Shown in pieces: positions 13,553-59,411 of a stretch of 64,000 nucleotides of DNA (within the stretch, counting starts at the first letter, position 1; each line of letters opens with the position of its first letter). The position numbers were made by a program, and so were the translations under genes. The stretch comes from Patescibacteria group bacterium (lineage in GTDB: Bacteria > Patescibacteriota > Patescibacteriia > JAHJFT01): positions 19,280-83,279 of the forward strand of contig JAQTTB010000001.1 in NCBI GenBank assembly GCA_028710985.1, in the 5' to 3' direction. The notes under the pieces were generated by a model. It was not told where the DNA came from. It was given only the letters and a program-made list of their open reading frames with translations, and ran no database searches.

Positions 13553-13613
13553 ACTCTTGAAATTTTATCTAATATTAGTTAATATATGCCCACAAGCACA
13601 TATATTATCTCCT

Positions 13614-41396: not shown

Positions 41397-41789
41397 ATGG
41401 GCGAAACTATCAAATCATTTGAGGACTTGCTCGTTTGGCAAGAGTCGCACAAGCTCATGATTGACGCTTATGGGTTCGCGGACCGCTATTTGCCGCCGGA
41501 AGAAAAATACAATCGCATTTCTCAAATAAAACGCTGTTCAAGCTCAATCCCTGCCAATATCGCCGAAGGTTATGGTCGATTTCATTTCTTGGAAAATATC
41601 CAATATTGCCGGCAAGCCCGAGGTTCACTTGATGAACTTAAAAACCACATCATCGCCGCCCGAGACCTAAAGCAGGCTCCTCCGGAAGAATGTGCCAAAT
41701 TTATCCAAAAATGCAATTATGTACGGGCTATCCTAAATAACTACATTAACAAAACTCATGATCTCTATATTGAAAATAAGCAAAAATAG
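41397..41789 (+). CDS. Four-helix-bundle protein of the 23S rRNA intervening-sequence protein family
   Basis: LLVWQESHKLMIDAY...IPANIAEGYGRFHFLENIQYCRQARGSLDELKNHIIAARDL matches the four-helix-bundle family often encoded in 23S rRNA intervening sequences. Here it stands alone among GT genes. Confidence 0.8.
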   Translation: MGETIKSFEDLLVWQESHKLMIDAYGFADRYLPPEEKYNRISQIKRCSSSIPANIAEGYGRFHFLENIQYCRQARGSLDELKNHIIAARDLKQAPPEECAKFIQKCNYVRAILNNYINKTHDLYIENKQK

Positions 41790-41854: not shown

Positions 41855-43021
41855 ATGCCACCAAATTCCCCAAAAAAGAAATTATTGCATCTCATTACTC
41901 AACCAACGTGGGGCGGCGCCCAGCGCTATATTTTTGATTTGGCCTCAAGCCTCAAGGACGAATTCGACATCACGGTCGCGTCCGGCCCGCTTCGCCAAAG
42001 CGAAAGCGAGGCGAGCGAAATTAAGGATGGCCGCGAGCTCCTTGACCGTCTTGAGGCCCAGGGCATAAAGACACGTGTTTTCCCTCACCTTATCCGTGCC
42101 ATCAATCCAATAAGAGATTTGCAGGCTTTTATACAAATCTTCGTATATCTATACGCCAATAAATTCGATACCATCCACTTAAATAGCAGCAAAGCCGGCG
42201 TCCTCGGCTCCATCGCCGCTAATATTCAGTCGGTTCCGAAAATAATTTATACCGCACATGGCTGGGTTTTTAATGAACCCATGCCAACCTGGAAAAAGAG
42301 ATTCTATAAATGGGCCGAACGCCTGAGCGCCAAACATAAAACAAAGATTGTCACCCTTTCCCGTTTAGAAACCGAGATCGGGGTACTTGAGCGCATTGCG
42401 CCGGCTGAAAAATTTGTACAAATCTATCACGGCGTAAAACCGATTGAATTTCTTTCATCCGATCAGGCCCGCGACGAACTAAAAATACCGCGCCAGATTC
42501 CGGTAATCGGTTGCATTGCCAATTTTTATGAAACCAAGGGCCTGGAATATATCGTCAAAGCCTGGCCGCAAATCATCGCCGCAATTCCTGACGCCCAGCT
42601 CGTGATTATCGGCGATGGCGCGCTTCGAAAAAAACTTGAATCGCTGATTAAAAAATTAAATCTTGATGAAAACATTGCGCTTGCCGGCTCCCGGCCCGAT
42701 GCTTCAAAATATTTAAAAGCTTTTGATGTTTTCGCGCTCCCGTCGGTTAAAGAAGGCCTTCCCTACGTGATTCTTGAGGCCATGCAAGCCGGTGTTCCGA
42801 TCGTGGCGACGCGCGTCGGCGGCATTCCAGAGATGATTGAGGACGGCGCAAGCGGCCGGCTCGTCCCGCCGGCTGATTCGGCCGCCCTTGCAACCGCGAT
42901 TATAAAAATTCTGCAAAACAAAAATCTCGGCGAGTCATACGCCGAGAACGCGCGCCAAACGCTGACGCAAAAATTCAGCTTTGAAAGAATGATCGAACAA
43001 ACCCGATCGTTATACAACTGA
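41855..43021 (+). CDS. Glycosyltransferase family 4
   Basis: KKLLHLITQPTWGGAQRYIFDL and LVIIGDGALRKKLE...FALPSVKEGLPYVILEAMQAGVPIVATRVGGIPEMI are typical of GT4. Confidence 0.82.
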   Translation: MPPNSPKKKLLHLITQPTWGGAQRYIFDLASSLKDEFDITVASGPLRQSESEASEIKDGRELLDRLEAQGIKTRVFPHLIRAINPIRDLQAFIQIFVYLYANKFDTIHLNSSKAGVLGSIAANIQSVPKIIYTAHGWVFNEPMPTWKKRFYKWAERLSAKHKTKIVTLSRLETEIGVLERIAPAEKFVQIYHGVKPIEFLSSDQARDELKIPRQIPVIGCIANFYETKGLEYIVKAWPQIIAAIPDAQLVIIGDGALRKKLESLIKKLNLDENIALAGSRPDASKYLKAFDVFALPSVKEGLPYVILEAMQAGVPIVATRVGGIPEMIEDGASGRLVPPADSAALATAIIKILQNKNLGESYAENARQTLTQKFSFERMIEQTRSLYN

Positions 43022-43416: not shown

Positions 43417-45660
43417 TTATTGCCCCGCCTTCGCTTCTTTCTCGTCAATCATTTTCAGAAACTCATCCGTATCCGCGGATATTGAGGGATCCAACTGTTT
43501 GGCAATATTCGCGTACAACCGCGCGAGCTCATACTCCCCGACTTCAAAATATGCCGCCGCAATACCGGCATATAACCGCGGATCGTTTTCATCAATATTG
43601 TCAATCGCAAAATTATAAAGTTCAATCACCCTCGGCATATTGCCGGCTTTAGCATTAAGTTCAACCATCGCCGCCACTTCCGGAAGATTTACCGGATGTC
43701 CGCCGATTGATGCCGATTTTTCAAATGCCTCAAGTGCTTTATCTTCCCACTCGGCCTCATAGTATGCAATACCTAAATTCCACCATGACTCCGTGACATT
43801 GGGATCGAGGTTCACTGTCTCCAGATAATACTGGACAGCCTCATCGGTGCGGCCAAGATTCAAGAGCGCCTTACCGCGCACAAAACGCAACTGCTGACGA
43901 TCGGGAGAATACCTTAGCGCCTCATCAATGTCCGCGAGCGCCTGTTCATGGTGCGTCGGATCAATCTTACCAAGCTCGAGCTGAATCAAGCTCATGAGAT
44001 AATAATTATATATATTCATGGGATGAAGCGGCACAGTTGCCTTTAGCGCATCGTATGATCGCTCAAGATACTCAGCGAGCTCATCGCTTGGCATTTGCAT
44101 TGAGCGGCTAATTTGCGCCATCTCTCGGCTATAGTAAAGAGGAACCAAATCCGGATATTGGTTTGAGATAGCCATGCCTTTTTCAAATGCTGCGGCCGAA
44201 CCTTTATAATCCCCTGCCTGTGACGCAATCACTCCGCTCCGCACCCAGGTGGAAGCAAACGCGGTCCGAAAAGTAAATAAATACAAAACCGCAAACGAAA
44301 AAATTATCAAGACCGCGAGCCACGCTCCGGCAACGGCTGGAGTATTGATAAACAATCTTCCCTCTTTTTTCGGTTCGGTTGTCTCGCTCTGCCACCAGGC
44401 CAGGCAGAAATAAAACATAATCAATGCATTCGGCTGGTCAAAGATAAAAAGATTTTGCACGAAATATCCGATCAGAATTCCAATTGAGCCGCAATAAATA
44501 TGGGTATCGATTTTACCGCCCTTGAAGGCTTTGGTGAGCTGAATGATTATGAGAGCGAATAAGGCGAGATATGCCGCCGTACCGACCACGCCCGTATTAT
44601 TCAGCATATCCATCATCTGGTTATGCGCATGGTCAAACCATGTTTCGTAGAACGAAAACTCCAGTGACTTTGGATTGTAGTATTTATTGAAAGTATAAAA
44701 ATAATTTTCCGGACCCCAACCAAAAACCGGACGCTCCAAGAATCCCTTCCACGCGATTTCCCAAGCAATAAAGCGCGTCGCCGCCGTGCCACCGGTTAAC
44801 GAAATATCTCGGAAGCGATTGAGGCCGGGAACCTGCGCGGTCCAGGCCTGATCTTTAATCAGCCAAAATCCAGCCGACGCAAGGATTATTGCCAAAAATA
44901 TACCCGCGGAAATTATGCGGATCTTTTTATTATTTTTAAGTATTGCGTAAAGCGCGAGATACACGAGCCCGGCGAGAAAAACTCCAACCATTGCGCCGCG
45001 TGTTTCGGCGAAAAGAAAAGCCAAGAACTGTATTGCGAGCATGGCTCCCCACATTGCCTTGGTTGACCACCGCACGGCTTTTTGCAGAAGAACGAGCGTA
45101 ATGAACATAGTGAAAATCAAATACGCAGCCAAGAAAATCGGATTATTCATAAACGCGCCGGTACGAGCGCCGGTTTGCAGCACCAATTCCGGCGCCACGC
45201 GCTGGATAAAAGCGACAAACGACAGCGCCACGCTCACACCCACATTGAAAATTAAAACTTTTTTCCATTCGCGCCAGCCGCGGAAAACCGAAATTGCCAT
45301 AAAATAAAACAGGAGATAATGGAGAAGCGGCCAAAAACCGGTCATACGTTCGTGATAACTCCAGAAGCTGCGATTCGAATCAACGCCAAAAATCACGGCT
45401 AAAAAAAGTCCGATGAAATACGCCGCAAGCCCGTACATAATAAGCGACCGCCGCGGCCGGTATTCCGGCTTGCGCGCGAGAAGATATATATACCACGGCA
45501 ACGCGCTCATGAGCACGATCATAAGATAGACCGTCTTGCCAAAAATATACGGGTAAACCGTCCATGGCAAAAAAATAAACGGCATCACGAGAGCCGCATA
45601 TACGCTAATTTTTACCCACCAATATGCGATGCGGTCCATTGTTTCAAGATTGTTATTCAT
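43417..45660 (-). CDS. O-antigen ligase family (Wzy_C) membrane protein with C-terminal TPR repeats
   Basis: About 12 TM helices. RFIAWEIAWKGFLERPVFGWGPENYF matches the Wzy_C ligase loop motif (R..W....P.GxGxxxF). The C-terminal roughly 300 aa carry TPR-like repeats (AEWEDKALEAFEK..., RTDEAVQYYLETVNLDPN...). Confidence 0.75.
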   Translation of the reverse strand: MNNNLETMDRIAYWWVKISVYAALVMPFIFLPWTVYPYIFGKTVYLMIVLMSALPWYIYLLARKPEYRPRRSLIMYGLAAYFIGLFLAVIFGVDSNRSFWSYHERMTGFWPLLHYLLFYFMAISVFRGWREWKKVLIFNVGVSVALSFVAFIQRVAPELVLQTGARTGAFMNNPIFLAAYLIFTMFITLVLLQKAVRWSTKAMWGAMLAIQFLAFLFAETRGAMVGVFLAGLVYLALYAILKNNKKIRIISAGIFLAIILASAGFWLIKDQAWTAQVPGLNRFRDISLTGGTAATRFIAWEIAWKGFLERPVFGWGPENYFYTFNKYYNPKSLEFSFYETWFDHAHNQMMDMLNNTGVVGTAAYLALFALIIIQLTKAFKGGKIDTHIYCGSIGILIGYFVQNLFIFDQPNALIMFYFCLAWWQSETTEPKKEGRLFINTPAVAGAWLAVLIIFSFAVLYLFTFRTAFASTWVRSGVIASQAGDYKGSAAAFEKGMAISNQYPDLVPLYYSREMAQISRSMQMPSDELAEYLERSYDALKATVPLHPMNIYNYYLMSLIQLELGKIDPTHHEQALADIDEALRYSPDRQQLRFVRGKALLNLGRTDEAVQYYLETVNLDPNVTESWWNLGIAYYEAEWEDKALEAFEKSASIGGHPVNLPEVAAMVELNAKAGNMPRVIELYNFAIDNIDENDPRLYAGIAAAYFEVGEYELARLYANIAKQLDPSISADTDEFLKMIDEKEAKAGQ

Positions 45661-45661
45661 A

Positions 45662-47620
45662 TTATTTTATTTCAACGGCATTAATATTGTCAAAAACGCC
45701 ACTGATAAAGCGCAGATTAATTTTATTATTATAAATTTCCGCGATGGCGATTCTCACCTCTCCGACAATATAGTCATAAAATGCTTTCAAGTCAAACTGA
45801 TTCGCCTGCGTCGCCCAGTTTGCGCTGCGGAGGAACGCGCCATTCCGATCGAATGATTTTATATATATATTTCCGTCTGTTTTATAAGTAACCAGTATCT
45901 CTTCTTCTTCGCCCGTATCCAAATTTTGCGTCGCAACGAATATTGGCCCCGTGATTTTCTCTGCCGCTTGAAAATTTGAAACCAAGACGCCACTCTTCCT
46001 AAATATCTTAATATGCAAAACACCGGCATCAATAAATCCCACGATTATTTCATCCGTGTCATCGGCATCAATATCTCCAGCCGTGACCGTAACGCCGCCG
46101 CGAAAACCAGAAGTATACGCCATAAAATTACCCTGAATTTCCCCTCTTTCATTAAACACTAGTATATGCGGACCGCCGCCCGGACCCGGCGCGGTGATAA
46201 TTTCATCGTTCACCGTCCGGCTGTCCACATTTCCGACGGCGATATTCACGCCACCGCGGAAAAGCGAATTATACGCAAAAAATTGTCCGTACAATTTCCC
46301 TGTCTCGCTAAAAATACGCACCTGCGGACCGCCGCCCGGACCCGCGCCGACCACAATTTCTTTTTGACCGTCATTATTTACGTCGCCGCTCTGAGCCGTG
46401 AACCCCTTTTTGAAACTATCCGGAAACACCGCGAAGCTATCTTTGACTTCCCCGCCGCTCCCAAGCTCACGGACAACCGGCGTAAAACCAAGCGGCGCAC
46501 CGATTACAAGCGATGAACCGCTCTTTGCCGCTTCAAGCGCCAACTCAAGCGCAGCGCGCGCATCCACGCGCGTTCCCAAGCCTCCGGCAAAATCCGGATT
46601 GATCCCGTCAATTATCACGCCGCTTTTTACCAAAATTTCATTGATTTCACGAGCCGAGAGCCCGGGCGCGATTGATTTCACGAGTGCGGACACGCCGGAA
46701 ACAATCGGCGCCGCAAACGAAGTGCCCGACCAATCGTCATCATAGAATGTATCAAAATCCGCAATTGCCGAGTTATAAACACGCGCGCTCCATATATCCA
46801 TGCCCGGTGCCGAAACATCAACGCAGGCTTTGCCAAAATTTGAAAATTTCGCTTTTTGATCCAACGTGTCGGTTGCCGCGACTCCAAGTACGTATATTTC
46901 ATTCTCATATTGATCAATGCACACCGGAAATTCATCGTACATATCCAAGTTCGAGCCGCCCGATTCGTCCGGCGTATTGCCGGCCGCCGCCACTACTACT
47001 ACTCCCGCTTCCCAGGCGCGGCGCACCGCAGTTGACATATCCTCGCTAAAATTAAAACCTACAAAACTCAAATTAATCACATCCGCACCATTTCGAATGG
47101 CGTAATAAATCGCTTTTGCCACATTGTCCGAGAATCCGTTACCCGTGGCATCGAGCACCTGAAGCGGCATTATCTTGCTCTCCCAGGTGATTCCGGCCAT
47201 GCCGTTCCGATTATTCCCTTCGGCTGCGATGATGCTCGCCACCGCCGTGCCATGGCTAATTCCCTCTTCCGCATATCCGTTGGAAAAATTCGGCAATATA
47301 TTTCCGTTATTATCCGAGAAATTCCATCCATTCACATCATCAATATAATCATTCTTATCATCATCGATTCCGTTTGCCGGAATTTCATCTTCATTGATCC
47401 AAGCATTGCCATCCAATTCCGGATGCGAAATATCCACGGCCGTATCAATCACTGCGACAATCACCTTCGGACTGCCGGTCGAAATATCCCAGGCGCGTTC
47501 GGCATCAATCTGACGCAAATACCACTGACGCGAAAAATCCGTATCGTTTGGGGTGAAAGCCTGCGCGCCTTGAACCGCAACGAATACAAAAATTATTGTG
47601 CAGAATATAAACTTTTTCAC
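45662..47620 (-). CDS. S8-family (subtilisin-like) serine peptidase with C-terminal FG-GAP-like repeats
   Basis: A signal peptide is present. The catalytic-triad contexts are VAVIDTAVDISHPEL (Asp), HGTAVASIIAA (His) and GTSFAAPIVSGVSALV (Ser). The C-terminus repeats GDxNxDGxxEIVVGAGPGGGPQVRIF. Confidence 0.85.
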   Translation of the reverse strand: MKKFIFCTIIFVFVAVQGAQAFTPNDTDFSRQWYLRQIDAERAWDISTGSPKVIVAVIDTAVDISHPELDGNAWINEDEIPANGIDDDKNDYIDDVNGWNFSDNNGNILPNFSNGYAEEGISHGTAVASIIAAEGNNRNGMAGITWESKIMPLQVLDATGNGFSDNVAKAIYYAIRNGADVINLSFVGFNFSEDMSTAVRRAWEAGVVVVAAAGNTPDESGGSNLDMYDEFPVCIDQYENEIYVLGVAATDTLDQKAKFSNFGKACVDVSAPGMDIWSARVYNSAIADFDTFYDDDWSGTSFAAPIVSGVSALVKSIAPGLSAREINEILVKSGVIIDGINPDFAGGLGTRVDARAALELALEAAKSGSSLVIGAPLGFTPVVRELGSGGEVKDSFAVFPDSFKKGFTAQSGDVNNDGQKEIVVGAGPGGGPQVRIFSETGKLYGQFFAYNSLFRGGVNIAVGNVDSRTVNDEIITAPGPGGGPHILVFNERGEIQGNFMAYTSGFRGGVTVTAGDIDADDTDEIIVGFIDAGVLHIKIFRKSGVLVSNFQAAEKITGPIFVATQNLDTGEEEEILVTYKTDGNIYIKSFDRNGAFLRSANWATQANQFDLKAFYDYIVGEVRIAIAEIYNNKINLRFISGVFDNINAVEIK

Positions 47621-47701
47621 AGGCTAAAAATTCATAAGTTATACGGATATGATACCATTTTTGCGCAAAAAATACACACTCATGCCATCCATCCCCAACC
47701 T

Positions 47702-47739
47702 AAATCCCGCCCCCGGGCGTCCCCAGGGGCGGGATTTTT
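47702..47739. terminator. GC-rich hairpin downstream of the giant-protein gene
   Basis: AAATCCCGCCCCCGGGCGTCCCCAGGGGCGGGATTTTT. The stem CCCGCCCC/GGGGCGGG is flanked by an A-run and a T-run. Confidence 0.55.
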
Positions 47740-47777
47740 GAGTTACTGAATATTGCCGATTACTCGGCCAGTCAAGA

Positions 47778-50700
47778 CTAGAAGGTCAATACCACGTTTT
47801 CGGTGAGATCCTTGACGAGATACTCGTCAGTCCAATCACCGGTTGACAACGTATCTAATTGAGCGTTGTGCGGTATTGCCGCCTTGTCTGACCAGACAAG
47901 GTAAGCAGCAACTTCGCCACCCACTACACCGGTTGCATCCAAGTTCGGACCACGTACGGTGCCGACCGCGGCTGCATTCAGGTGATAGGTGTAGATGGTT
48001 GAGCTGCCAGTCTTAATAGTTACGTTAAGCGACTCGCTGGAGCCTGCACCGCCAACCGTACCCTTGAGGGTAAAGATGTGGCCGGAGCCAGAAATGCTCT
48101 GCTCTGTGCCGCTCGTGTAACTAATAAAGATTGTGCCCGAGGCATCGGTTGCGCCTTCAACAGTATTGCCGAGGTTATCAGTGATGGTAACCAAATCGGA
48201 AATATCTGTACCGTCCTGGAACCACTTCAAGGTATCAACCGTGAACGCACCGCTCTTAGTGAATTCGAATGTGAGTTTCGCGACACCCGCATCGCCTGCA
48301 CTGTCTGCGGTAACCTTGGTCTTGTAGAGTTCAATCGTACCGTTGGCCAGGCTCGAGCTAGCTAACGCTTGCTTGGCAAAAGTAAGCTTGGTCTTGCGGA
48401 TAACCATTGGGTTGCCCGCGAGGACCGCCGAGGCCGCCGCGTACACGCGCTCGCCGGACATGGCGCCCGTGCCCTTCACATTGTAACTATTGGTATAGTT
48501 CGCATCCCACTCGCCGGTCGTAACATTGTATTCAACCGCGAGTTTCGGGTTGTTGCCCGAGGTTGCGCCTGCGTCAATCGCGTTCAGCTTGCCAACCACC
48601 TGGAAGGTCACACTGCCGTCAGCCGGCACGGTGATCGGGGTGGAAAGCGTGATGTCGGTCGCCGTCGCCGAACCCGGGAACACATCCGTGCCCGAGGAGA
48701 CGATTACGCCGTCCTTCTGAATCGCGAGGTACTTGAAGTCACTATTTGCGCCGCCGCTATAGCGTTGCAGGCGGATCTTGTCAACGGAGATATTTTCGTA
48801 CTGTGAAGTAATCTTGGCTTGGGCAAAGGTTGTCCAAGCATCCTTACCGGCAATGACAATGTCGGTTGACGGATTTGATTCCGCCGCGATTGTCAATGTA
48901 CCGGAATTCTTCACAGTCTGGAAGATTGTCGGACCGTTGTTGATCGGATTGCTCCAAGTCACGTCGCCGTCAGTCGCAGTAACTGAATTGGCATCTGCGT
49001 CTTCGGCCGAAATATCGGTTTCGAGAGCAATACCGACCCAGAATGTGTCATCCGTACCGCCGGAAGTCGCCACTGAATCAAGTATTGCCTTGACAACCAA
49101 TGTCTTGGTTTCACCCGCCGGAATGCTATAGCTGAGACCGTCAAATGTGGCGGTACCCGCCGTTGCATCCGGGCTCTCGGCCGTGCCGAGCTGAGTCGTG
49201 CCATCCCACAGCGTAAGCTGGGTAATGACATCGTCCAGTTGAGCCGCGGTATAACCCGCACCGTTCACATTGCCCTGACCAGTGACTTTAACGCTCGTCA
49301 CTTTGATTGCGCTCTGTGAACCAGCTGTGAACACAAAACCAGATGAAGCAACATCTGATGTCTTCTTGACATAGGTGTCACTCACCGGAGTCGCGGCCAG
49401 CTGAACTGTCAGACTCGATGTCTTGACCGTCATGGTGTTGCCGGTAATAACCGCATTCGGCACGATTTGGGTTACAGCGAGATATTCGCCTGTGGCATTG
49501 TTCTTCACATAATCGGCAGCAAAGGCATTCAACTTGGCCACATATTGGCGATCGCTGTTGAACCAGGCGTTGTTTGCCACATCGGCCTTGAGGGCCAAAT
49601 TCTTGGTTGTGCCCGCGTTCACATAAAATGAATCGCTAACCACCCAAGTGCAAGTAGTTGCATCCTCACCACAGGCGGGACTTCCGCTTGAAAGTTGAGT
49701 CGGACCGGCGACAACTTCGCCGGAATCGGTATCAACTAATTTGATGTCAGTGAACAGATCTGTGGTGGATGCGTCAATGTAGTCATCACCATTGATACCT
49801 GCCAGTGTGAAGCTGATCTTGCGGACCTCGAGAGTGTTCTCGGCCGCAGTCATGCCAAACTGGAAGAAGATCTGATCCTGGCCGGCCTTTGGCATAGTGC
49901 CAGTCGCCGGACCATTGTAAGCGATCGTCAATTGACCGCCCTCGGTATTCGTGGTTACTGAATCGCCGCTATCAAAATCATCAATGTTCACTGCCGCGCC
50001 CCAGCCATAGGTATTATCTGTGGCATCGACATCGGTAGTGTACTCAAGATAGGTAATGATAGAGCGGCCGCCCTTGCCCACGACATCGGCCTTGACATAA
50101 AGAGTCTTGGTTGTGCCGTTGGAAATGAGATAAGGCGTGGCGAGGATAAAGTTTATCTTATCGCCGACAATTGTCGCTGTTTCGGCCACTAATTCTGTAC
50201 CAACATACAGCTTCAGGTTGGTAACGTCGCTGTTCACGACCGTACCGGCCTGAGCGATGCTGATTTGATTAAGCTTAATATCCGCGCTTGCGGCAGTAAG
50301 CTTAAATGAAGAAATCGTGGCTGCAAGTGATCCAACTGTTACGTTGGCCGGATCTGAACCTTCATTCACCGTCAGAGTGGCGGCATCCTGTGCACCAACC
50401 GTGAAGGTGTTGCCGCGTATCGGGAAACTGCCCGAAACCGTGGCGGTTGTGCCAACCTTACTCGTCGCAACGAGCTCTAGGGCATGTTCATCCGCAGCTA
50501 TTGCGGTTGAACTCAAATCGCCGCGGACCGTGAGATACTTGGTCGTGCCGGCGGTAATCGTCAAGTTCAGGTTGTTGAATTGAGCCTCGTTTGAGCTGGT
50601 ATTGATACTGCGACCGCTCGTCAGTCTTGTTGAACCCTCATAGAGGTAGACGTTCGTGAAGTCGCTCGCTGTACCAACGCCAAGGCGATGGAATGTCAGG

Positions 50701-51557
50701 GTATTAAGAATGACATTGCCGTCCGAGCTCGCGGTCACAGCGACCTTAATAAGCTGCACGCTTGACGAACCCTGGGCGACAGTTGCGCCCGCCGGGGTGT
50801 CAGAGGCCAAGGCCACGGCAAGACCGGTGCCTGTGCCGGAAACGCCGGCTACAAGATCCGTAATGCCCGCTTCACCGCCGGTAACCGCGGTTCCGTCCGC
50901 ATAAGTTACATCGGCCGCGACTGGGCTAATTACGAAACGCCATTGGAACATGTTGGCATCAAATGCCGCCTCGTTCGCAATTGCGCGCTTCTGACCATCC
51001 TGAATGTAGTAGACGGATGCACCAGAAGCATACTTAATCAAGCATCCATTCGGATGCACATAAGTGCTGATTGAGGTGCCGATTGAATAGTTGGTGAAGA
51101 ATGAATCCGGAACGTCAACTACCCAGCTGGCCCAATTTGTTCCCCAGAGTTTCTGGGCAACGGCCTCGGTCTCAACCCAATGCAAAACACCGCCGGTCGT
51201 CACGGCATAAACCTTGGGATCGGTGGTAATTTTGATTAGGAATGTACCTGGGCGGATTGTGATATTTCCGCCGATAGAGACTGCCGCGAGTTCCGCGTCA
51301 GTGATCTCTTTCAGGGTTGAGAAATCGGGGTACCATGAATAATAGGTGTTCTCGTTCGGGAAAACGTATCTCTTACCATCTGCTGCGTAATAATACACCG
51401 CCGGTTGGCTGGCCTTAATAAGGTCGCCTGCGGACAAGGTCGCTGCTTCCGCTGCCAAAGGCATTATGAAAGCCGCAAAACCGATTGACCACGCCATGGT
51501 GGTGATAACTACGCCAACGGTAAGGATCCTCTTTGAAATGCGTAGAACTTCAGTCAT
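47778..51557 (-). CDS. Giant (1259 aa) secreted Thr/Ser/Gly/Ala-rich beta-rich surface protein; putative S-layer, adhesin-like and possible glycoprotein
   Basis: It has an N-terminal signal/TM (ILTVGVVITTMAWSIGFAAFIMPLAAEA) and a roughly 200-aa N-terminal domain with repeated aromatic blocks (YYYAADGKRYVFPNENTYYSW / YYIQDGQKRAIANEAAF). Then come about 1000 aa of Ig-like low-complexity T/S/G/V repeats. GC content is higher than in the surrounding genes. Confidence 0.6.
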   Translation of the reverse strand: MTEVLRISKRILTVGVVITTMAWSIGFAAFIMPLAAEAATLSAGDLIKASQPAVYYYAADGKRYVFPNENTYYSWYPDFSTLKEITDAELAAVSIGGNITIRPGTFLIKITTDPKVYAVTTGGVLHWVETEAVAQKLWGTNWASWVVDVPDSFFTNYSIGTSISTYVHPNGCLIKYASGASVYYIQDGQKRAIANEAAFDANMFQWRFVISPVAADVTYADGTAVTGGEAGITDLVAGVSGTGTGLAVALASDTPAGATVAQGSSSVQLIKVAVTASSDGNVILNTLTFHRLGVGTASDFTNVYLYEGSTRLTSGRSINTSSNEAQFNNLNLTITAGTTKYLTVRGDLSSTAIAADEHALELVATSKVGTTATVSGSFPIRGNTFTVGAQDAATLTVNEGSDPANVTVGSLAATISSFKLTAASADIKLNQISIAQAGTVVNSDVTNLKLYVGTELVAETATIVGDKINFILATPYLISNGTTKTLYVKADVVGKGGRSIITYLEYTTDVDATDNTYGWGAAVNIDDFDSGDSVTTNTEGGQLTIAYNGPATGTMPKAGQDQIFFQFGMTAAENTLEVRKISFTLAGINGDDYIDASTTDLFTDIKLVDTDSGEVVAGPTQLSSGSPACGEDATTCTWVVSDSFYVNAGTTKNLALKADVANNAWFNSDRQYVAKLNAFAADYVKNNATGEYLAVTQIVPNAVITGNTMTVKTSSLTVQLAATPVSDTYVKKTSDVASSGFVFTAGSQSAIKVTSVKVTGQGNVNGAGYTAAQLDDVITQLTLWDGTTQLGTAESPDATAGTATFDGLSYSIPAGETKTLVVKAILDSVATSGGTDDTFWVGIALETDISAEDADANSVTATDGDVTWSNPINNGPTIFQTVKNSGTLTIAAESNPSTDIVIAGKDAWTTFAQAKITSQYENISVDKIRLQRYSGGANSDFKYLAIQKDGVIVSSGTDVFPGSATATDITLSTPITVPADGSVTFQVVGKLNAIDAGATSGNNPKLAVEYNVTTGEWDANYTNSYNVKGTGAMSGERVYAAASAVLAGNPMVIRKTKLTFAKQALASSSLANGTIELYKTKVTADSAGDAGVAKLTFEFTKSGAFTVDTLKWFQDGTDISDLVTITDNLGNTVEGATDASGTIFISYTSGTEQSISGSGHIFTLKGTVGGAGSSESLNVTIKTGSSTIYTYHLNAAAVGTVRGPNLDATGVVGGEVAAYLVWSDKAAIPHNAQLDTLSTGDWTDEYLVKDLTENVVLTF

Positions 51558-51782
51558 AAATAATTTATATCCTTTTGAATTTAATTCTTATCACGCAAGC
51601 GGCCATTGGCCCCGACCTTTTAGCCTGCGCGTTAATTAACTCTGGTACAAGTTCCGACGCCCCAACATAAAGTTGGCGGTCGGAATCCCGACTTCCGCCT
51701 GCGGCGGAATGTCGGGACATCAGCCCATACCCCGGAAACGGCTTCCATAAAAACCGCCTTCGGGGTATTTCCGATGATTAAT

Positions 51783-52991
51783 TTAATTCGTTACCGCTTT
51801 TGTCGTGGTTGCGGCTCCAGCCACTGCTGGCGTAGATGAAGTCTGAATTACGGGAATGATTGGGTCAGTCGATGAAACCCCAACCGGTTCGGTTATAATC
51901 GGCGTCTCGCTTGCTTCACTCTGATTTTCGGCTCCAACCGCCGAAGCCAGGGTATTCACTTCTTTTACCGCCGCAATCGCCCCGACTAAATCATTATTTT
52001 CCAAAAGTTCCCGTGCCTCCACAACTTTTTCCGCCAGTTGATCGGCAGTCGCGGTTGATGCTCCCGTTACCCCGATAACTTCACCCGTGCCGCTCGCCGC
52101 ACCAGTAATCACCTCTCCGGTCGAAGACGCGGCCTCCGAACCCACCGGGGTAGAAATTACCTCCGCGGTACCCGAAGCGCTCGTTACTCCAACCAACGCT
52201 GCCGCGGCTTCGGCTCTTTCCAGCTTGCTCGTAATTTTTTCAATTACTTCTTCCTCGGTGATTCCTTCGGCCTGACCCTGGGCGTGTTTCTCTACGATGA
52301 CTTCAACGGCCTTAACTGCCGTTACCTCAACAACCGCTTTCGCTTCTTGGACATCATTCTTATTGACATCGGAAAGCTTGTCCATGGTTTCCTGCAATTT
52401 ATTTTCAAACTCTTCAGATTTTTCATCAACGATTTTCGCCACCTCAACCGCCTTCTTTGAAGAACTTTTTTGTTTAATTTCTTCCAGATCATCCTGAACT
52501 GTTTTCATGCCTTTTTTAAAATCCGCCATGGACTTGGTTAGCTTTTCTTCCTTCCTTATATCGGGTTTCTCAATCAACTTAGTCGCTTCTTCCAGCCGCC
52601 GTCCGGCAAAATCAATGCGCAGTTTTGTTTTAACTTCCCGGGCCGGCGAAAGGGTTATTTGCGCGCCTTCGGAAAATAATTTTACGCCGTAAAGCGCATC
52701 ACCCGGCAAGCTGCCAAAAGACGCACTCACTGTCGCGGTCCAGCTGCCAAATACCAGAAATACGATAACCATGGCTGCGACAACCGGACGAAACGCCTTA
52801 GACCAGCCGGTGCTTACATCCACTGCCAATGAAAAATTTTCAAGCAGACTGCCGGTTTTCTCCGCCGCCGGCGCGTCCTGTCTTGCGTGAGCAAGCATGC
52901 TTTCGCGCGTTGACAATACCCAAGCCTCACGCGCTTTGCCGCCCGCTTTCGTCTTACCGAGATTATTCAATTGTTCTACCAATTTATCCAT
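51783..52991 (-). CDS. Membrane-anchored putative anti-sigma factor / regulator
   Basis: It lies immediately downstream of the ECF sigma gene. It has a single TM helix (VVAAMVIVFLVFGSWTATV), then a segment GDALYGVKLFSE and a long coiled-coil, Ala/Glu/Lys-rich region. The anti-sigma role is inferred from position only. Confidence 0.4.
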   Translation of the reverse strand: MDKLVEQLNNLGKTKAGGKAREAWVLSTRESMLAHARQDAPAAEKTGSLLENFSLAVDVSTGWSKAFRPVVAAMVIVFLVFGSWTATVSASFGSLPGDALYGVKLFSEGAQITLSPAREVKTKLRIDFAGRRLEEATKLIEKPDIRKEEKLTKSMADFKKGMKTVQDDLEEIKQKSSSKKAVEVAKIVDEKSEEFENKLQETMDKLSDVNKNDVQEAKAVVEVTAVKAVEVIVEKHAQGQAEGITEEEVIEKITSKLERAEAAAALVGVTSASGTAEVISTPVGSEAASSTGEVITGAASGTGEVIGVTGASTATADQLAEKVVEARELLENNDLVGAIAAVKEVNTLASAVGAENQSEASETPIITEPVGVSSTDPIIPVIQTSSTPAVAGAATTTKAVTN

Positions 52992-53000
52992 TTATCGGGT

Positions 53001-53546
53001 TTATTTATTGTCTTGCTGCTCCATAATTTCACGTAATGCCGCGAGCGAGCGGTGAAGCAGAACCCGCACATTGTTTCCGCTTTTCTGCAAAATACTCGCG
53101 ATTTCGCCAGCTGTCATATTATCCAGATACTTCATCACCACAATCTCGCGATACTCATCCTTTAGTTTATTCAGCGCACGGTAAATCCTCGCCAAGTCAG
53201 ACTGCTTCTCCAGTTCCGCCAGTCCAACGATGTCCACTTCTCCGGCCGTCTCTTCCATGAGCTGAATATCGCTCTTTCTCTGCCGATAATGGTCAATGAC
53301 CAAATTCCGCGCAATTGTGTAGAGTAGGGCTCCCACACTTTTCACCGGCTGGCTGCCTGCAAGATAATCCCAGGCTTTTAAAAAAACCTCTGAACTCAAG
53401 TCTTCAGCTTCTTGTTCCGAGGATACTTTAAAAAAAATAAATCTATATATCTTGGCGCCGTAATCATCATATAACTCTGCAAATGCCCCTGCGTCCTGCT
53501 TCGCCTTGATCTTATAGACCAGTATTTTTTCTTTGAATTTATTCAT
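53001..53546 (-). CDS. RNA polymerase sigma-70 factor, ECF subfamily
   Basis: Region 2 reads FLKAWDYL and region 4 reads EYREIVVMKYLDNMTAGEIASILQKSGNNVRVLLHRS. Length is 181 aa. Confidence 0.85.
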   Translation of the reverse strand: MNKFKEKILVYKIKAKQDAGAFAELYDDYGAKIYRFIFFKVSSEQEAEDLSSEVFLKAWDYLAGSQPVKSVGALLYTIARNLVIDHYRQRKSDIQLMEETAGEVDIVGLAELEKQSDLARIYRALNKLKDEYREIVVMKYLDNMTAGEIASILQKSGNNVRVLLHRSLAALREIMEQQDNK

Positions 53547-53638
53547 CTATATTGACGATAAGATGATACGAATGTTACACAATCCGCCTTCATTTGTAAA
53601 GTCTTTTAGTCTCAAATTCGGTTAAATCACCCGTTTTC

Positions 53639-53667
53639 TTGACAAACTTTCAAGCTGCACATATAAT
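53639..53667 (+). promoter_or_regulatory. Consensus sigma-70-type promoter (TTGACA-17-TATAAT) upstream of the HTH gene
   Basis: ttgacaAACTTTCAAGCTGCACAtataat has both hexamers perfect and the optimal 17-nt spacer. It sits about 35 nt upstream of the 53703 ATG. Confidence 0.55.
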
Positions 53668-53702: not shown

Positions 53703-53999
53703 ATGTCTTCATCCATTCGCTTATCCGTATCCGAAGCCGCCCGGCTTTTTGGCATTAGTGAAAAAACCCTGCGCCGCGCCATCATTAATAAGGAAATCAA
53801 CTATATCGTGGTTGCCGGCCGGTACAAGCTAAATTTTGAAAGCCTGGTCAAGTGGTCCCAGCAAAAAACCACGGTGCGCCGCAAATCCGAAAAATACGGC
53901 ATCGACCAATTTGTGGATAAATGGCGCCTCTCCGCCACCCTCTACTCCCCCAACCCACCCGCCACGGAACAAGAGAACAATTCAACAATACAACAATAG
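53703..53999 (+). CDS. Helix-turn-helix (excisionase/MerR-like HTH_17) DNA-binding protein
   Basis: SVSEAARLFGISEKTLRRAIINKEINYIVVAGRYKL is a typical HTH_17 or excisionase-family DNA-binding helix. Confidence 0.6.
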   Translation: MSSSIRLSVSEAARLFGISEKTLRRAIINKEINYIVVAGRYKLNFESLVKWSQQKTTVRRKSEKYGIDQFVDKWRLSATLYSPNPPATEQENNSTIQQ

Positions 54000-54074: not shown

Positions 54075-55229
54075 TTACGCCGTTTCCAGCGCGAACTTGC
54101 ATTCCGGCTTCAGATCGAAATAAAGTCCGGAAATGTCGCGGCAGATGTCTTTCCAGTTATATTTTTCATTCACGAAAATCTTCGCGCGCGCGCCCAGCTC
54201 TTTCAGATTTTCGGTTTGCGGCAAATACGTCTCAAGCTTACGGATTAAATCTTCAACATTCTTATTTTCAAAACTGATTCCCGCTTCACTCACGACTTCC
54301 ATATTTTCCGGGATATCGCTCGCGATCACCGGCAAACCCCAGCCCATCGCTTCAAGCAAAGCGATCGGCAAACCTTCGGATTCGGACGGATGAACCAGCG
54401 CGTAAGCGTTGCCAAAAAGCGCATTCAACGGCTCGCCGTTCTGAAAACCGGTAAATACAATAGATTCGTCGCCGGCCGCCATCTCATGAAGTTCTTTCAC
54501 GTAATCATCTGTAAAAGCCGAGTCGCCGACGATCACGAGTTTTTTATTGCCAATTATCTCCGGATTACGGAATTTTAGAGTTTTATAAGCATCAATCAAA
54601 TAATGGGCGCCCTTATGACGCACCAGCCGCGAAACCATAATAATATACTCTTTAGGCTCAAGACCAAACTTTTTAAGATACTCGGTGTCGGCCGGATTCT
54701 GCATCCTAACGCCGTTCGGAATATATTGAGTCATGGAATCATAAGCTTCGGAGCAATACTGATTCAAAGTACGCGAAACCGTAATGGTGCGGTCCGCGAA
54801 ACGGCACGCTGACCATTCGCCAAGGCGAAGCATAGCGCGGGCAATAAATCCCCATTTTTGATGCTTGCGATCAATGCAGTGAAAAGTCACCACCACTTTG
54901 GTGCTGGGTCGCAAAATTTTCGGAAGCCACGAGAGTAGCGCCGGCCCGACGCCGTGAATGTGGATAATCTCAAAACCGCTCCGGCAGGCATGAATAATGC
55001 TCAAGAAAGTATGGCTAATGGCATCAAGATGCTTGGTCTTAAGGCTCGGGGTATAAATAAGATGCACCCCGTTAATCTGTTCCTCGTGGCCCTTTGAGTA
55101 CCACGGGCGACAGTATACAAAAACCTCCAGGCCGAGTTCAGCCAGGCCGCGCGAAAGCTCATCCACGTGGCGTTCAATACCACCGAAGATAGCCGGGATG
55201 CCTTTTTGTCCGATCATTGCTATTCTCAT
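54075..55229 (-). CDS. Glycosyltransferase family 4
   Basis: MRIAMIGQKGIPAIFGGIERHVDELSRGLAELG and LVIVGDSAFTDDYVKEL...VHPSESEGLPIALLEAMGWGLPVIASD are typical of GT4. Confidence 0.82.
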   Translation of the reverse strand: MRIAMIGQKGIPAIFGGIERHVDELSRGLAELGLEVFVYCRPWYSKGHEEQINGVHLIYTPSLKTKHLDAISHTFLSIIHACRSGFEIIHIHGVGPALLSWLPKILRPSTKVVVTFHCIDRKHQKWGFIARAMLRLGEWSACRFADRTITVSRTLNQYCSEAYDSMTQYIPNGVRMQNPADTEYLKKFGLEPKEYIIMVSRLVRHKGAHYLIDAYKTLKFRNPEIIGNKKLVIVGDSAFTDDYVKELHEMAAGDESIVFTGFQNGEPLNALFGNAYALVHPSESEGLPIALLEAMGWGLPVIASDIPENMEVVSEAGISFENKNVEDLIRKLETYLPQTENLKELGARAKIFVNEKYNWKDICRDISGLYFDLKPECKFALETA

Positions 55230-55413
55230 ACCATGATTATTTGTAATGCGATTAATTTGTTATGTAATCTCATTAAATCCTCGTCTTGCCCGCCGAAATC
55301 CCGACCGAACGAAGTGAGCGTCGGGACGAAGGAGGGTCATTGCTATTCTCATATTAAACAACCCACTATACCACATTTTTGCGTTTTTGTCAACTCTCGA
55401 GTCCGGCCAGCTC

Positions 55414-55442
55414 TTGACAAAACCCGCAATTTATGATATACT
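55414..55442 (+). promoter_or_regulatory. Near-consensus sigma-70-type promoter (TTGACA-17-TATACT) upstream of the GC-rich lipoprotein gene
   Basis: ttgacaAAACCCGCAATTTATGAtatact. A GGAGG ribosome-binding site at 55652-55656 lies 8 nt before the ATG at 55665. Confidence 0.5.
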
Positions 55443-55664
55443 TTACCGTTAAAGTCAAAATGGAACAGTCGTATCTTATGACAAATTTTGGCTAAAGCAA
55501 GCCCTTTACAACCTTCTCCCAAGCGTCGAATCTACATTTTCTGGCTATTTTCAGCAATGGTTGGCACACAGTTCAACCCCACCTGCTCGGCTTATATTAT
55601 GCAGATTCATCGCTTAGGAGAAGCAAAACAACCTAAACGCAAAAAACACCGAGGAGGGTGTAAA

Positions 55665-56699
55665 ATGAAGAACTCCAGGATAGTGCTGATTCTCTGCGCC
55701 CTGGTACTGATGGCCTGCGAGACGAGGTACGTGGACGTGGGCGGCGAGCCCGACACCTCCATCGACACCGCGTCCGACAGCGTGGAGCTCTGCTCCGACG
55801 GCCTGGACAACGACATGGACGGCCTGGTCGACTGCAACGACAACGACGGCGACGAGAACTGCCCGCCGTGCGCGGACGCGTCAACCGACGCCGTGGCCGA
55901 CGAGATCGAGGACAGCGCAGAAACCGACGTCCCGCCCGTGGAGCTCTGCTCCGACGGCCTGGACAACGACTTCGACGGACTCGTGGACTGCAACGACGGG
56001 GACGACTGCTGCGATGAAGCAGTGTGCGTTACGAGCGAGCACTGCGCTTCGGAAGACGCTTCAAGCGACTCCGAAGAGGAAGCCGACGCAGTCTCCGACT
56101 CGGGTGCGGATTCGGATCCCGCCGAGGACCCCGTGCCTGACACTGATCCCGACACCGCCTCCGACCCGGATAGCGCAAGCGATCCGGACGCGGTCTCTGA
56201 CCCGGACGTGGTGGACGCCGAAGCCGACGCAGCTGACATCCTCCACTCCGGCCTGGCCACGTTCAAGTGGTGCCGGCCCATGACCATGGCGCGCCCCGAC
56301 CACATTCTCGCGGAATGCTTTGTCTGGGGAAGCCTCTATGAAAGCTGGGATGACTCCTGGGAGCTGGCAACCGGCTCTCCGGACTTCGTCGCACCGGCCG
56401 ACAGCGACTGCATCGAGTTCACCCTGCCAGATCTGGATTACACGCTCCTCGGAATAAGCGTAGAGTGCAACATCACTGCCTATTCCGACTCGGCGTACGG
56501 GCCGTGGGGACGCATCTACGCTCTCGGCGAGTGCACGTGCGGCGGCAGCTGTGTCGTAAAAGGCACGCTTACCGTCCGTTCCGGTCCCGACGCTGATGAC
56601 GCAACCGCCTTGGATCTCACGAGCCTAGTCGTGCAGAATCCGCGATGCGCGTCCCTGAGCGACCAGGCCGGCAACTACGTCCTCTCACCTATTCCATAG
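55665..56699 (+). CDS. Acidic secreted lipoprotein with Cys/Asp-rich calcium-binding-like repeats; strongly GC-rich gene
   Basis: The start is set at [18 protein letters not shown], a signal peptide with lipobox L-M-A-C, preceded by GGAGG. There are two copies of [22 protein letters not shown] plus long D/S/E/A-rich tracts. GC content of about 65% contrasts with about 35-50% elsewhere. Confidence 0.65.
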
Positions 56700-56807
56700 G
56701 GGGTTCGTCTCTCCCCATGGGCAGGATAAGCAAGGTCCCCCCCTACCTTGCCCCTGCCCGCCTTTTTTCAGCGAATCATGCAAATGATTCATTGAAAAAA
56801 GGCAAAA

Positions 56808-56845
56808 ATAAAAAACGCCCCGTGTTTACCGAGGGCGTTTTTTTG
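56808..56845 (+). terminator. Rho-independent terminator of the lipoprotein gene
   Basis: AAAAAACGCCCCGTGTTTACCGAGGGCGTTTTTTT has an 8-bp GC-rich stem and a 7-T run. Confidence 0.75.
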
Positions 56846-56983
56846 TGCATCTTAGTCAGAACATGGGGTTCGGGGGCGCAACTGAGCATGGCGCTAGGAA
56901 GCAGTGAATTGCCTATTTGCCGAGAGCGAACCCGCCTGCCAACGCCTGGCGTAGGCCTGGCGGGCAGGTTTGCGACCCCGAAA

Positions 56984-57400
56984 CTTCCTGCCTGCCGGCA
57001 GGCAGGTTGCATACTTTTGGTTACAAAAGTATGTCCCGCTGAAAGCGAACAAGAGTGATGCTAGAAAACAATAATCAATACCCAGACAAGCGGCAGGCTG
57101 TGGCTAGAAAATCCCAATATTAAAACAACTTGCACGAAAATATTTAATAGGATTCCCCCGGTACATTGAACCTGGATCCCCGCCTTCGCGGGGATGACGA
57201 AGAGAGCACTTTGCCACTTACCGTCATTCCCGCGAAAGCGGGAATCCAGAAACAAAGCCCCTCCAAAATCCCTCTCTGACACGTCGCTCGCGAGCGACGT
57301 GTCTCTGTCTCCCCCTTCCTGCCTGCCGGCAGGCAGGTCAGCCACCCCGAAACTTTTTGGTTACTTTTTGGTTACAAAAAGTAACGCGCCGGAGGCAAGA
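56984..57400. repeat. Copy B of the 214-bp structured repeat (56984-57198), followed by further hairpin modules: a BIME-like array
   Basis: 56984-57198 aligns base-for-base with 43051-43264, with about 20 substitutions and small indels. Downstream modules are an inverted REP (CGTCATTCCCGCGAAAGCGGGAATCCAG), a perfect 13-bp palindrome (GACACGTCGCTCG/CGAGCGACGTGTC), a second CTTCCTGCCTGCCGGCAGGCAGG copy and ACTTTTTGGTTACAAAAAGT. Confidence 0.8.
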
Positions 57401-57459
57401 GACCAGAGGTAAAAAGATGCAAGAAAAAAATGGGAGGCCCAAACGATTGTAGGAGGAAC

Positions 57460-57490
57460 AAAAAGACGTGCCTTTAAGCACGCCTTTTTA
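57460..57490. terminator. Bidirectional rho-independent terminator 3' of the 57499 minus-strand gene
   Basis: AAAAAGACGTGCCTTTAAGCACGCCTTTTT is a short stem-loop flanked by an A-run and a T-run. Confidence 0.6.
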
Positions 57491-57498
57491 TAATATTT

Positions 57499-59394: not shown

Positions 59395-59411
59395 ACAAGT
59401 ATGATACCAAT

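Follow-up and report, generated by a model that had tools for sequence, protein, structure and literature searches.

A conserved Patescibacteria locus pairs a candidate protein O-glycosylation enzyme with a giant, putatively wall-anchored surface protein

Do bacteria of the Patescibacteria encode, at one conserved locus, both a major surface protein and the enzyme that decorates it with a glycan? This question is raised by a stretch of 64,000 nucleotides from a Patescibacteria group bacterium (assembly GCA_028710985.1, contig JAQTTB010000001.1, positions 19,280 to 83,279 of the forward strand), hereafter called the window, to which positions refer unless a related locus is named. Open reading frame (ORF) calling found here five co-directional minus-strand genes encoding, in order, an extracytoplasmic function (ECF) sigma factor of 181 aa (53001-53546), a single-pass DUF5667 membrane protein of 402 aa in the anti-sigma position (51783-52991), a giant secreted surface protein of 1259 aa (47778-51557), an S8 subtilase of 652 aa with a C-terminal FG-GAP beta-propeller (45662-47620), and a membrane enzyme of 747 aa (43417-45660) that combines a WaaL-like Wzy_C domain of the GT-C glycosyltransferase type with tetratricopeptide repeats (TPRs). 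An earlier reading of the same DNA, made from the letters alone (the sequence-only reading), had proposed that these genes form a sigma-regulated protein O-glycosylation and surface-layer (S-layer) system. The gene content that it described was borne out, since Pfam and NCBIfam confirmed the domains of four of the five products (Sigma70_r2 and Sigma70_r4_2 in the sigma factor; DUF5667, E=2e-11; Peptidase_S8, E=3e-44; Wzy_C, E=4e-20). We favor the explanation that the locus is a module dedicated to O-glycosylation and centered on the main surface protein that these bacteria anchor on their wall, and give it an even chance of being right.

To follow the locus across genomes, BLAST was used to match the window proteins against ORFs called in 83 loci, presence being counted on evaluable loci (72 or 54). 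About 80 loci of Uhrbacteria and Patescibacteria share the same core order: a divergent gene for a small HTH_17 DNA-binding protein (53703-53999, plus strand; Pfam HTH_17, E=1e-7), then the sigma, DUF5667, giant and Wzy_C(-TPR) genes in one direction, and finally a convergent glycosyltransferase (GT) gene of the GT4 family (41855-43021, plus strand; Pfam). A GT4-GT4-GHL15 group is often found further upstream. The sigma gene precedes the giant in 72/72 evaluable loci and a DUF5667 protein is present in 63/72; Wzy_C lies at most 3.5 kb downstream of the giant in 46/54 and the convergent GT4 gene occupies the opposite strand in 52/54, while the HTH_17 gene is divergent and present in 46/72. Such an arrangement, judged from genome comparison, is far above chance, and the gene order that the sequence-only reading had singled out in the window is, apart from the S8 gene, kept well beyond it. 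The S8 peptidase, which had been counted as a member of the module, does not share this conservation. It directly follows the giant gene in 1/54 evaluable loci (L001) and, additionally, in three divergent ones; most loci carry no S8 gene, which rules it out as a core component and points to a lineage-specific insert, accessory to the conserved module.

The proteins themselves are conserved to different degrees. The HTH_17 protein is the best conserved one (median identity across loci of 53%), followed by the giant (41.5%), the sigma factor (36%), GT4 (34%), and Wzy_C and DUF5667 (30% each). The exact giant sequence is on record from a Patescibacteria metagenome-assembled genome. More than 1100 full-length homologs of the giant were found in the searched collection, the best 120 of which are nearly all 1256-1345 aa long, 41-69% identical to the query over at least 93% of its length, and all unnamed. 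Relatives occur in at least 580 genomes, one genome per species being scanned, and those genomes that bear a meaningful name belong to Candidatus Uhrbacteria or Patescibacteria. Many public third-party records of metagenome-assembled genomes that contain the module (L004, L009, L013, L016 and others) are titled "uncultured Gammaproteobacteria bacterium", and single ones Methylomirabilis and Halanaerobium, probably through wrong labels or contamination during binning.

The pairing of the giant with the enzyme was also found at larger distances. Of five distant Wzy_C(-TPR) homologs that were looked up, 25-31% identical to the window enzyme, four (in L084, L086, L087 and L088) adjoin a homolog of the giant of 1100-1270 aa (E 1e-22 to 3e-47). 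A Portnoybacteria locus is among them. The giant is retained beside the enzyme from Uhrbacteria to Portnoybacteria and beyond, and the proposal thereby withstood one of the refuting tests named by the sequence-only reading, a lack of the giant in relatives. In L084, L086 and L088, a separate TPR gene of about 230 aa stands just before a Wzy_C gene. In L087, the giant gene adjoins Wzy_C-TPR, but the sole ECF sigma gene is on the opposite strand at a distance of 2 kb, and a DUF5667 protein was not called.

Some variations around the enzyme gene were noted in passing. L084 carries two Wzy_C genes in tandem. In L088 (4277-10007), Wzy_C-TPR is likewise represented by a pair of paralogs, of 737 and 744 aa, and the same locus encodes an LCAT/lipase-domain protein of 1174 aa. 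A gene for a 23S rRNA-intervening-sequence protein (PF05635; window 41397-41789, plus strand) recurs in L001, L029, L032, L041 and L084, its place in several loci being right beside the Wzy_C gene or in the interval that separates the giant from Wzy_C.

Could the Wzy_C-TPR protein act as a glycan transferase? It matches PF04932 over aa 207-365 with E=3.8e-20 and 72.6 bits, against a cutoff of 31.7. Its relatives in the Protein Data Bank (PDB) became visible only in a profile search restricted to the transmembrane (TM) part; the search with the full-length protein was dominated by TPR matches, and a single-sequence PDB search with the TM domain alone gave no match. The TM-only profile matched the structure of WaaL (7tpg, E=8e-16), and in the profile alignment R221, R296 and H346 of the window enzyme correspond to R191, R265 and H313 of Cupriavidus metallidurans WaaL. 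R296 and H346 are invariant and R221 is nearly invariant in two homolog sets (n=87 and n=31); R105, N173, R296, D343 and H346 are all invariant among the Wzy_C homologs. The catalytic His and Arg residues on which the sequence-only reading had hinged are therefore kept.

An AlphaFold2 (AF2) model of the enzyme (pLDDT 95.9, predicted TM-score 0.92) shows 13 TM helices and a catalytic loop at aa 269-347, the thirteenth helix (aa 441-481) running from the membrane into the TPR superhelix. Since this number of helices is odd, the TPR domain is predicted to lie outside the cell, on the same side as the catalytic loop and beside it. By Foldseek, the membrane part resembles WaaL 7tpg_B (TMt 0.64 over 455 columns), and the TPR part is closest to the acceptor-binding TPRs of OGT and SPY (SPINDLY). 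Wzy_C-TPR is a candidate oligosaccharyl:protein O-transferase.

The presumed partner of this enzyme, the giant (NCBI locus tag PHW53_00295), has a signal peptide with cleavage at AEA|A (38/39), an acidic pI of 4.5, and a composition rich in Thr (13.2%), Ala (12.1%), Gly (9.2%) and Ser (8.3%), with 0.2% Cys. No match was found in Pfam, NCBIfam or PDB sequences, and by these searches it represents a new protein family. An AF2 model covering aa 44-1243 (pLDDT 90.8) comprises an N-terminal alpha/beta domain with three beta-beta-beta-alpha repeats (aa ~44-238), a short linker and about six large beta-sandwich domains; the chain finishes in a conserved WSD...PH...DWT end. The sequence-only reading had suggested looking for Ig-like arrays; fold searches with the model returned generic matches only (Ig-like, cohesin-like, CLIPPER-like).

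The N-terminal region proved the most widely distributed part of the protein. Its 202 aa match 5154 protein clusters at E<=1e-3. The giants carry the module N-terminally, and unrelated Big_1/Big_5 proteins as well as an S8 peptidase have it at their C-terminal end; in the L087 homolog, a bona fide PG_binding_1 domain takes its place. By its distribution, the module is a mobile domain and likely a cell-wall anchor of the Candidate Phyla Radiation (CPR). Neither an SLH nor a CWB2 wall-anchoring domain was matched in the giant by Pfam or NCBIfam, and the module itself (aa 39-240; window 50838-51443, minus strand) has no Pfam model. Together with the signal peptide, the acidic pI and the near absence of Cys, this widely shared, anchor-like module makes the giant look like a surface protein. 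Since Wzy_C-TPR stays adjacent to the giant in L087 despite the swap of the anchor, it is more likely that the enzyme works together with the beta-sandwich body than with the ligand of the anchor.

A transferase of this kind would need a lipid-linked glycan, and the surroundings of the locus hold genes that could supply it. Sixteen GT genes (12 GT4 and 4 GT2, by Pfam) were found around the locus, together with an initiating transferase, a flippase and two GtrA genes, which agrees with the inventory of more than 15 GT genes and accompanying functions given by the sequence-only reading. Most belong to a glycan-building island (7109-41254) with the PHPT (polyprenyl-phosphate hexose-1-phosphate transferase), the Wzx flippase, both GtrA genes and 12 GT genes (Pfam). 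The initiating PHPT is a Bac_transf protein (13536-14993, E=7e-62); the flippase is of the Wzx-type Polysacc_synt family (16055-17308), the GtrA genes lie at 13097-13552 and 28920-29399, and a GT2 gene at 30801-31754 (all by Pfam). The island further contains methyltransferases, a radical-SAM/SPASM gene, an AsnB-like amidotransferase, epimerases, and two unassigned polytopic membrane proteins. No ABC transporter (Wzm/Wzt) was found among the window ORFs scanned, and no lipopolysaccharide genes in the 64-kb window. GC content is 35-42% at 16-41 kb, compared to 46-56% elsewhere in the window; similar low-GC GT islands have been reported for strain-variable or laterally acquired glycan clusters. 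Three polytopic proteins of the window lack a Pfam match, at 31754-33418 (minus), 23518-25224 (minus) and 4975-7071 (plus); the first two have at least 9 predicted TM helices each and the third about 15. They are candidate Wzy polymerases or GT-C glycosyltransferases, and the one at 31754-33418 adjoins GT2 and GtrA genes in a GtrC-like placement.

Comparison with characterized systems suggests that the closest one is the S-layer protein O-glycosylation (slg) system of Geobacillus stearothermophilus NRS 2004/3a and Paenibacillus alvei. A Wzy_C domain is common to WsaB, WsfB, PilO and PglL, to which WsfB and PglL add a C-terminal TPR, and the 168-aa TPR protein WsaA is encoded just upstream of wsaB; slg clusters have a low GC content, a PHPT initiator and an AsnB homolog, and the Geobacillus S-layer gene is monocistronic and adjacent to the glycan cluster (PMC2943079). 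The likeness is threefold. The TPR is either fused to Wzy_C, as in the window and WsfB, or encoded by a separate upstream gene, as in L084, L086, L088 and WsaA/WsaB; the enzyme gene has as a direct or close neighbor a monocistronic gene that encodes a large secreted surface protein; and PHPT, a low-GC GT cluster, an AsnB homolog and methyltransferases are present. On the other hand, the locus studied here has a Wzx flippase where slg uses a Wzm/Wzt ABC transporter, its target would be an unrelated new family with a new N-terminal module in place of SLH, and it adds an ECF sigma/DUF5667 pair, an HTH_17 gene and an RNA leader, none of which is reported for slg loci. Moreover, glycosylation and lattice formation are hypothetical for the locus studied here. 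The new elements, namely the anchor module and the RNA leader, are thus attached to a known kind of system.

The enzyme can also be compared with the O-oligosaccharyltransferases PglL, PilO (TfpO) and PglS, with which it shares a Wzy_C/RfaL-type GT-C core and the catalytic His and Arg. For PglS, a model indicates a catalytic His and TM helices of odd number, with the C-terminal domain in the periplasm (PMC12800693); in the window enzyme, too, an odd number would put the C-terminal domain outside, beside the active site. A TPR motif is reported in PglL as well (PMC2943079), but the window enzyme differs from this group by the absence of PglL_A and Wzy_C_2, by a much longer TPR superhelix of ~280 aa, by the Gram-positive-like envelope of its host, and by one dedicated candidate substrate encoded alongside, instead of a pilin or a general glycoproteome. 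WaaL of Cupriavidus metallidurans (PDB 7tpg/7tpj) is the only relative of solved structure by sequence and the best fold match of the TM domain; it has neither the thirteenth helix nor the TPR domain, and Patescibacteria, which are described as lacking an outer membrane, are not expected to contain lipid A-core, its acceptor. A TPR superhelix that is fused to a glycosyltransferase and presents protein acceptors is likewise seen in OGT/SPINDLY and in TMTC1-4, the TMTC enzymes being composed of a GT-C part and lumenal TPRs. This resemblance is an analogy of design and not catalytic homology: the catalytic domains are unrelated, and the donors are a nucleotide sugar or dolichyl-phosphate-mannose there, compared to a presumed undecaprenyl-pyrophosphate-oligosaccharide here.

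On the explanation that we favor, the giant would be exported by Sec and held on the wall by its N-terminal three-repeat module, from which the approximately six beta-sandwich domains would project; it would be the major conserved surface protein and possibly an S-layer subunit. The lipid-linked glycan would be built by the neighboring PHPT, GT4, GT2 and modifying enzymes and flipped by Wzx. Wzy_C would then use its outer-loop, WaaL-type Arg/Arg/His site, with the external TPR superhelix holding the acceptor, to transfer the glycan en bloc to Ser/Thr (or Tyr) residues of the giant, as WsfB or WsaA/WsaB do. The S8 protein would be an optional, lineage-specific maturation or turnover protease.

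How might such a module be controlled? The sigma factor matches TIGR02937 at 87 bits, above cutoff, and has regions 2 and 4 only. Upstream of its gene stands an ECF-type promoter, GTAAC-N16-CGTC (53554-53578, minus strand), whose -10 element (CGTC) leaves just 7 nt to the ATG; a Shine-Dalgarno sequence cannot be seen, and the sigma mRNA may be leaderless. The motif is kept in the same place in eight related loci (including L001, L072, L074, L075, L077, L080 and L081), and it is the sole meaningfully placed copy in the 64-kb window, which makes autoregulation of the sigma gene plausible. A GGAAC-N19-CGCG sequence upstream of the giant was considered as a further ECF promoter and discarded, its spacing not fitting. 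Nor was a sigma-70-type promoter found in the window spacer before the giant; the giant gene may therefore either share with the sigma and DUF5667 genes a transcript that is processed within the spacer, or start from a promoter of its own that was not recognized. The promoter of the HTH_17 gene, for its part, agrees with the sigma-70 consensus at 12/12 positions (TTGACA-17-TATAAT; 53639-53667, plus strand). What argues for sigma control of the giant or of glycosylation is synteny, and the regulated character that the sequence-only reading gave the system could not be substantiated beyond that.

The DUF5667 protein has one TM helix (aa 70-88) and a cytoplasmic N-terminal part of ~65 aa. DUF5667 was its only match in Pfam and NCBIfam, which returned no recognized anti-sigma domain (zf-HC2, RskA); its position, topology and co-conservation suggest that it acts as the anti-sigma factor. 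The pair recalls SigW/RsiW in the two-domain sigma factor, the single-pass membrane protein gene 9 nt downstream and the autoregulatory promoter of the AAC/CGT type. It differs in that the partner lacks a recognized anti-sigma domain, that its external part is composed of DUF5667 and a mucin-like tail beyond the short cytoplasmic part, and that the target promoter is found only at the sigma gene itself. The tail (aa ~265-402; window 51783-52190, minus strand) is rich in Ser, Thr, Ala, Gly and Pro. DUF5667 homologs in 73 loci have a median of 31% Ser+Thr over their last 120 aa, an example being STSTPAASPTSSTPLPTTSTGTPP. Such tails are at least as plausible as the giant as O-glycan acceptors, and the tail of the window protein is a candidate alternative or additional acceptor, or a wall-spanning spacer. 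On the favored explanation, the sigma factor would autoregulate from GTAAC-N16-CGTC and, with the DUF5667 protein, couple the state of the envelope to expression.

The giant gene is also set apart at the RNA level. The very short gaps emphasized by the sequence-only reading exist between the sigma and DUF5667 genes (9 nt) and between the S8 and Wzy_C genes (1 nt, by which the two appear to be translationally coupled), but not around the giant, which is flanked by a 225-nt structured leader upstream (51558-51782, minus strand) and a 157-nt spacer downstream. The latter (47621-47777) folds at -67.3 kcal/mol (z=-6.0) and includes a 16-bp GC-rich, terminator-like hairpin (47702-47737, minus strand) 40 nt past the stop codon of the giant. 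The secreted, acidic and Cys-poor giant thus comes with its own leader and terminator-like hairpin.

The leader has a minimum free energy (MFE) of -101.7 kcal/mol (z=-7.25) and forms four stem-loops. The last one (51592-51631) corresponds to a conserved motif made of an outer helix, the unpaired AAAGGUCG (51613-51620) and an inner hairpin. Across related loci, this motif lies ~60-170 nt upstream of the ATG of the giant, and AGGTCG, usually as AAAGGTCGA, is present in 75/78 loci. It is unpaired, within the stretch AAAGGUCGA, in an asymmetric internal loop between the outer helix and the inner hairpin, while both helix sequences vary from locus to locus. When strict contiguous pairing was asked for, both helices reached at least 5 bp in 45/72 loci, compared to 2.8% of shuffles. 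RNAalifold found no pairs on two MAFFT alignments of the leader, in which the arms were out of register; a covariance model was therefore built on a structure given by hand. Run over 1.63 Mb with a limit of E<=0.01, it yielded 61 matches, each of them immediately upstream of a giant gene and on the same strand. In the resulting alignment, 76% of the cells pair, compared to 50% in shuffles, double changes occur at all 11 pairs, and the covariation score is 0.647 compared to 0.23 (0/500 shuffles), controls with slid positions staying at or below 0.25; the alignment being fitted to the model, these numbers are somewhat inflated. Independent single-sequence folds agree with the structure. The flanking helices covary, which points to RNA, and the interpretation of AAAGGTCGA as a promoter element was therefore rejected.

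The copy of the window (51592-51631) fits this architecture by eye and by MFE and is too divergent to pass the threshold of the covariance model; the window lineage has a different, reduced version of the leader. A similar element precedes the Portnoybacteria homolog of the giant. Searches with 4227 Rfam covariance models gave no match, neither when the window and six loci were scanned at gathering score nor when one leader was scanned at E<=1. In most loci, further conserved blocks (ATCCTCGCCA, CCTGACGGGCGGGGGAA) were seen upstream of the motif; ATCCTCGCCA, GCCCGCTCGTGT and a CAGGG-hairpin-TCCTGACGGGCGGGGGAA element lie 40-200 nt upstream of AGGTCG in most Uhrbacteria loci (for instance, L006 9650-9870 and L019 8000-8200), and GNRA-capped hairpins (GGATTCGCAAGGATCC) were noticed downstream in the same leader. 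The whole spacer of 250-300 nt may be one large structured RNA. A role in mRNA stability, in translation control or as a protein-binding site is possible; on the favored explanation, the leader would probably set the stability or translation of the giant mRNA.

Several observations weigh against a dedicated glycosylation of the giant, and other explanations of the locus must be weighed with them; these bear on different questions, the acceptor of the enzyme and the identity of the giant, and are not mutually exclusive. For the enzyme, neither PglL_A (PF15864) nor Wzy_C_2 (PF11846) was matched at E<=0.01, and the catalytic residues do not discriminate between functions, being shared with lipid or polysaccharide ligases and polymerases. 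The giant, described by the sequence-only reading as Thr/Ser-rich, is so only moderately (21.5% Ser+Thr), the truly mucin-like stretch being the C-terminal tail of the DUF5667 protein, and it has no recognizable sequon or clear acceptor motif. The S-layer label fared no better, SLH being absent from the domain matches and no solved S-layer protein being matched in fold searches; furthermore, the giant is better conserved than its neighbors (41.5% compared to 30-36%), which is unusual for S-layer proteins. No ECF promoter was found in the window before the giant, S8 or Wzy_C genes. Finally, two loci break the pairing. L085 has its Wzy_C-TPR homolog in a teichoic-acid-like cluster, whose other members include two flippases and a Glyphos_transf gene, and lacks a giant in the 10 kb seen, and L074 has a giant and a TPR gene with no Wzy_C within 10 kb. 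In this divergent lineage, the stretch after the giant (L074, 14198-19714) looks rearranged, a TPR gene of 198 aa and an S8 gene being found there along with a Big_1 protein and two transposase genes of the IS200-like type.

The setting of the L085 homolog, the missing acceptor motif and the fact that the best relative of solved structure is the lipid A-core ligase WaaL would all fit an enzyme that ligates or polymerizes a wall glycopolymer, such as a secondary wall polysaccharide or a teichoic-acid-like polymer, onto lipid or peptidoglycan, the polymer then serving as the matrix for the giant. Indeed, S-layer genes of Gram-positive bacteria are often linked to genes for the anchoring polymer, as with csaAB of B. 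anthracis and the AP locus of C. difficile. We nevertheless consider this possibility doubtful, though not by a wide measure, because the adjacency kept after the PG_binding_1 swap in L087 argues against a linkage through the anchor ligand, because TPRs usually bind proteins and this one resembles those by which OGT and SPY bind their acceptors, and because the island offers other candidate polymerases in its two polytopic proteins with at least 9 TM helices; the precedent of WsfB and WsaA/WsaB also matches the architecture closely. If the enzyme is indeed an O-oligosaccharyltransferase, its main or additional acceptor could still be the DUF5667 tail, or many envelope proteins, with the giant linked for the sake of regulation. 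PglL-type enzymes prefer disordered segments rich in Ser, Ala and Pro, low-complexity tails with their high Ser+Thr content recur in 73 loci, and the linkage of the DUF5667 gene to the module is as tight as that of the giant gene. However, L087 keeps the giant and Wzy_C-TPR adjacent with no DUF5667 protein called, and the tails may be mere wall-spanning spacers, so that we hold this version to be improbable. The identity of the giant is a separate matter. Its fold matches to PrgB, to the CLIPPER domain of a fibrillar adhesin, and to invasin-like and cohesin modules, as well as an N-terminal anchor followed by a beta-sandwich stalk, are typical of an adhesin by which an episymbiont could hold its host, in which case the glycan genes would decorate the surface generally. 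Host-specific adhesins normally vary in repeats and sequence, whereas the giant is unusually uniform in length (about 1260-1320 aa) and sequence in at least 580 species, is better conserved than the adjacent enzymes, and is encoded in the loci examined by a single gene at a fixed position with its own leader RNA; an adhesin therefore seems unlikely to us.

A dedicated module for O-glycosylation of the giant thus remains our preferred explanation. A more far-reaching version of it would be an envelope circuit common to the whole CPR phylum, in which Wzy_C-TPR would have two acceptors, the DUF5667 tail and the major surface (S-layer) protein; the glycosylation state of the anti-sigma factor would sense glycan supply or the integrity of the layer and feed back, through the ECF sigma factor and a structured RNA leader of a new class, onto synthesis of the surface protein. 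This is a speculative extension, to which we attach little probability.

The remaining genes around the module show some further regularities. The S8 protein has visible catalytic D/H/S motifs (VIDTAVD, HGTAVAS, GTSFAAP), and its propeller (45662-46480, minus strand) is 39% identical (E=1e-30) to that of a GHL15 protein (59412-60200, minus strand), which suggests that the FG-GAP propeller is a shared targeting or binding domain of the two. The GHL15 glycosidase-like protein with its FG-GAP propeller (59412-61574, minus) belongs to an upstream arm (54075-63773) that also includes a GT4 gene (54075-55229, minus; Pfam), an N-terminally anchored DUF11/CLIPPER-like protein (57499-59394, minus; like GHL15, identified by Pfam/NCBIfam) and two more GT4 genes (61453-62694 and 62691-63773, minus; Pfam). 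A membrane-anchored protein with acidic double-disulfide repeats (NF033662, by NCBIfam; 55488-56699) is encoded there on the plus strand, and L001 has a counterpart likewise on the opposite strand. The order of this arm is the same in L001-L003 and in many other loci.

CPR/Patescibacteria make up a large and almost uncultured share of bacterial diversity, and cryo-EM imaging suggests that they have a distinctive surface layer. A literature search on S-layers, glycosylation, O-antigen ligases and DUF5667 in Patescibacteria and Uhrbacteria returned nothing relevant and no study identifying protein or glycan components of this layer, in line with the view of the sequence-only reading that the system is uncharacterized in the lineage. 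The module described here now names candidates: a protein family of ~1260 aa found at a fixed locus in hundreds of species, a probable wall-anchor module that other surface proteins share by the thousands, a dedicated enzyme (Wzy_C-TPR), and a regulatory set that includes a new RNA motif. The composition of the CPR surface, its glycosylation and its regulation thereby become testable questions. If the proposed function is true, O-glycosylation of the S-layer type would extend from the Firmicutes to the CPR, and the enzyme could provide a new O-oligosaccharyltransferase scaffold for glycoengineering.

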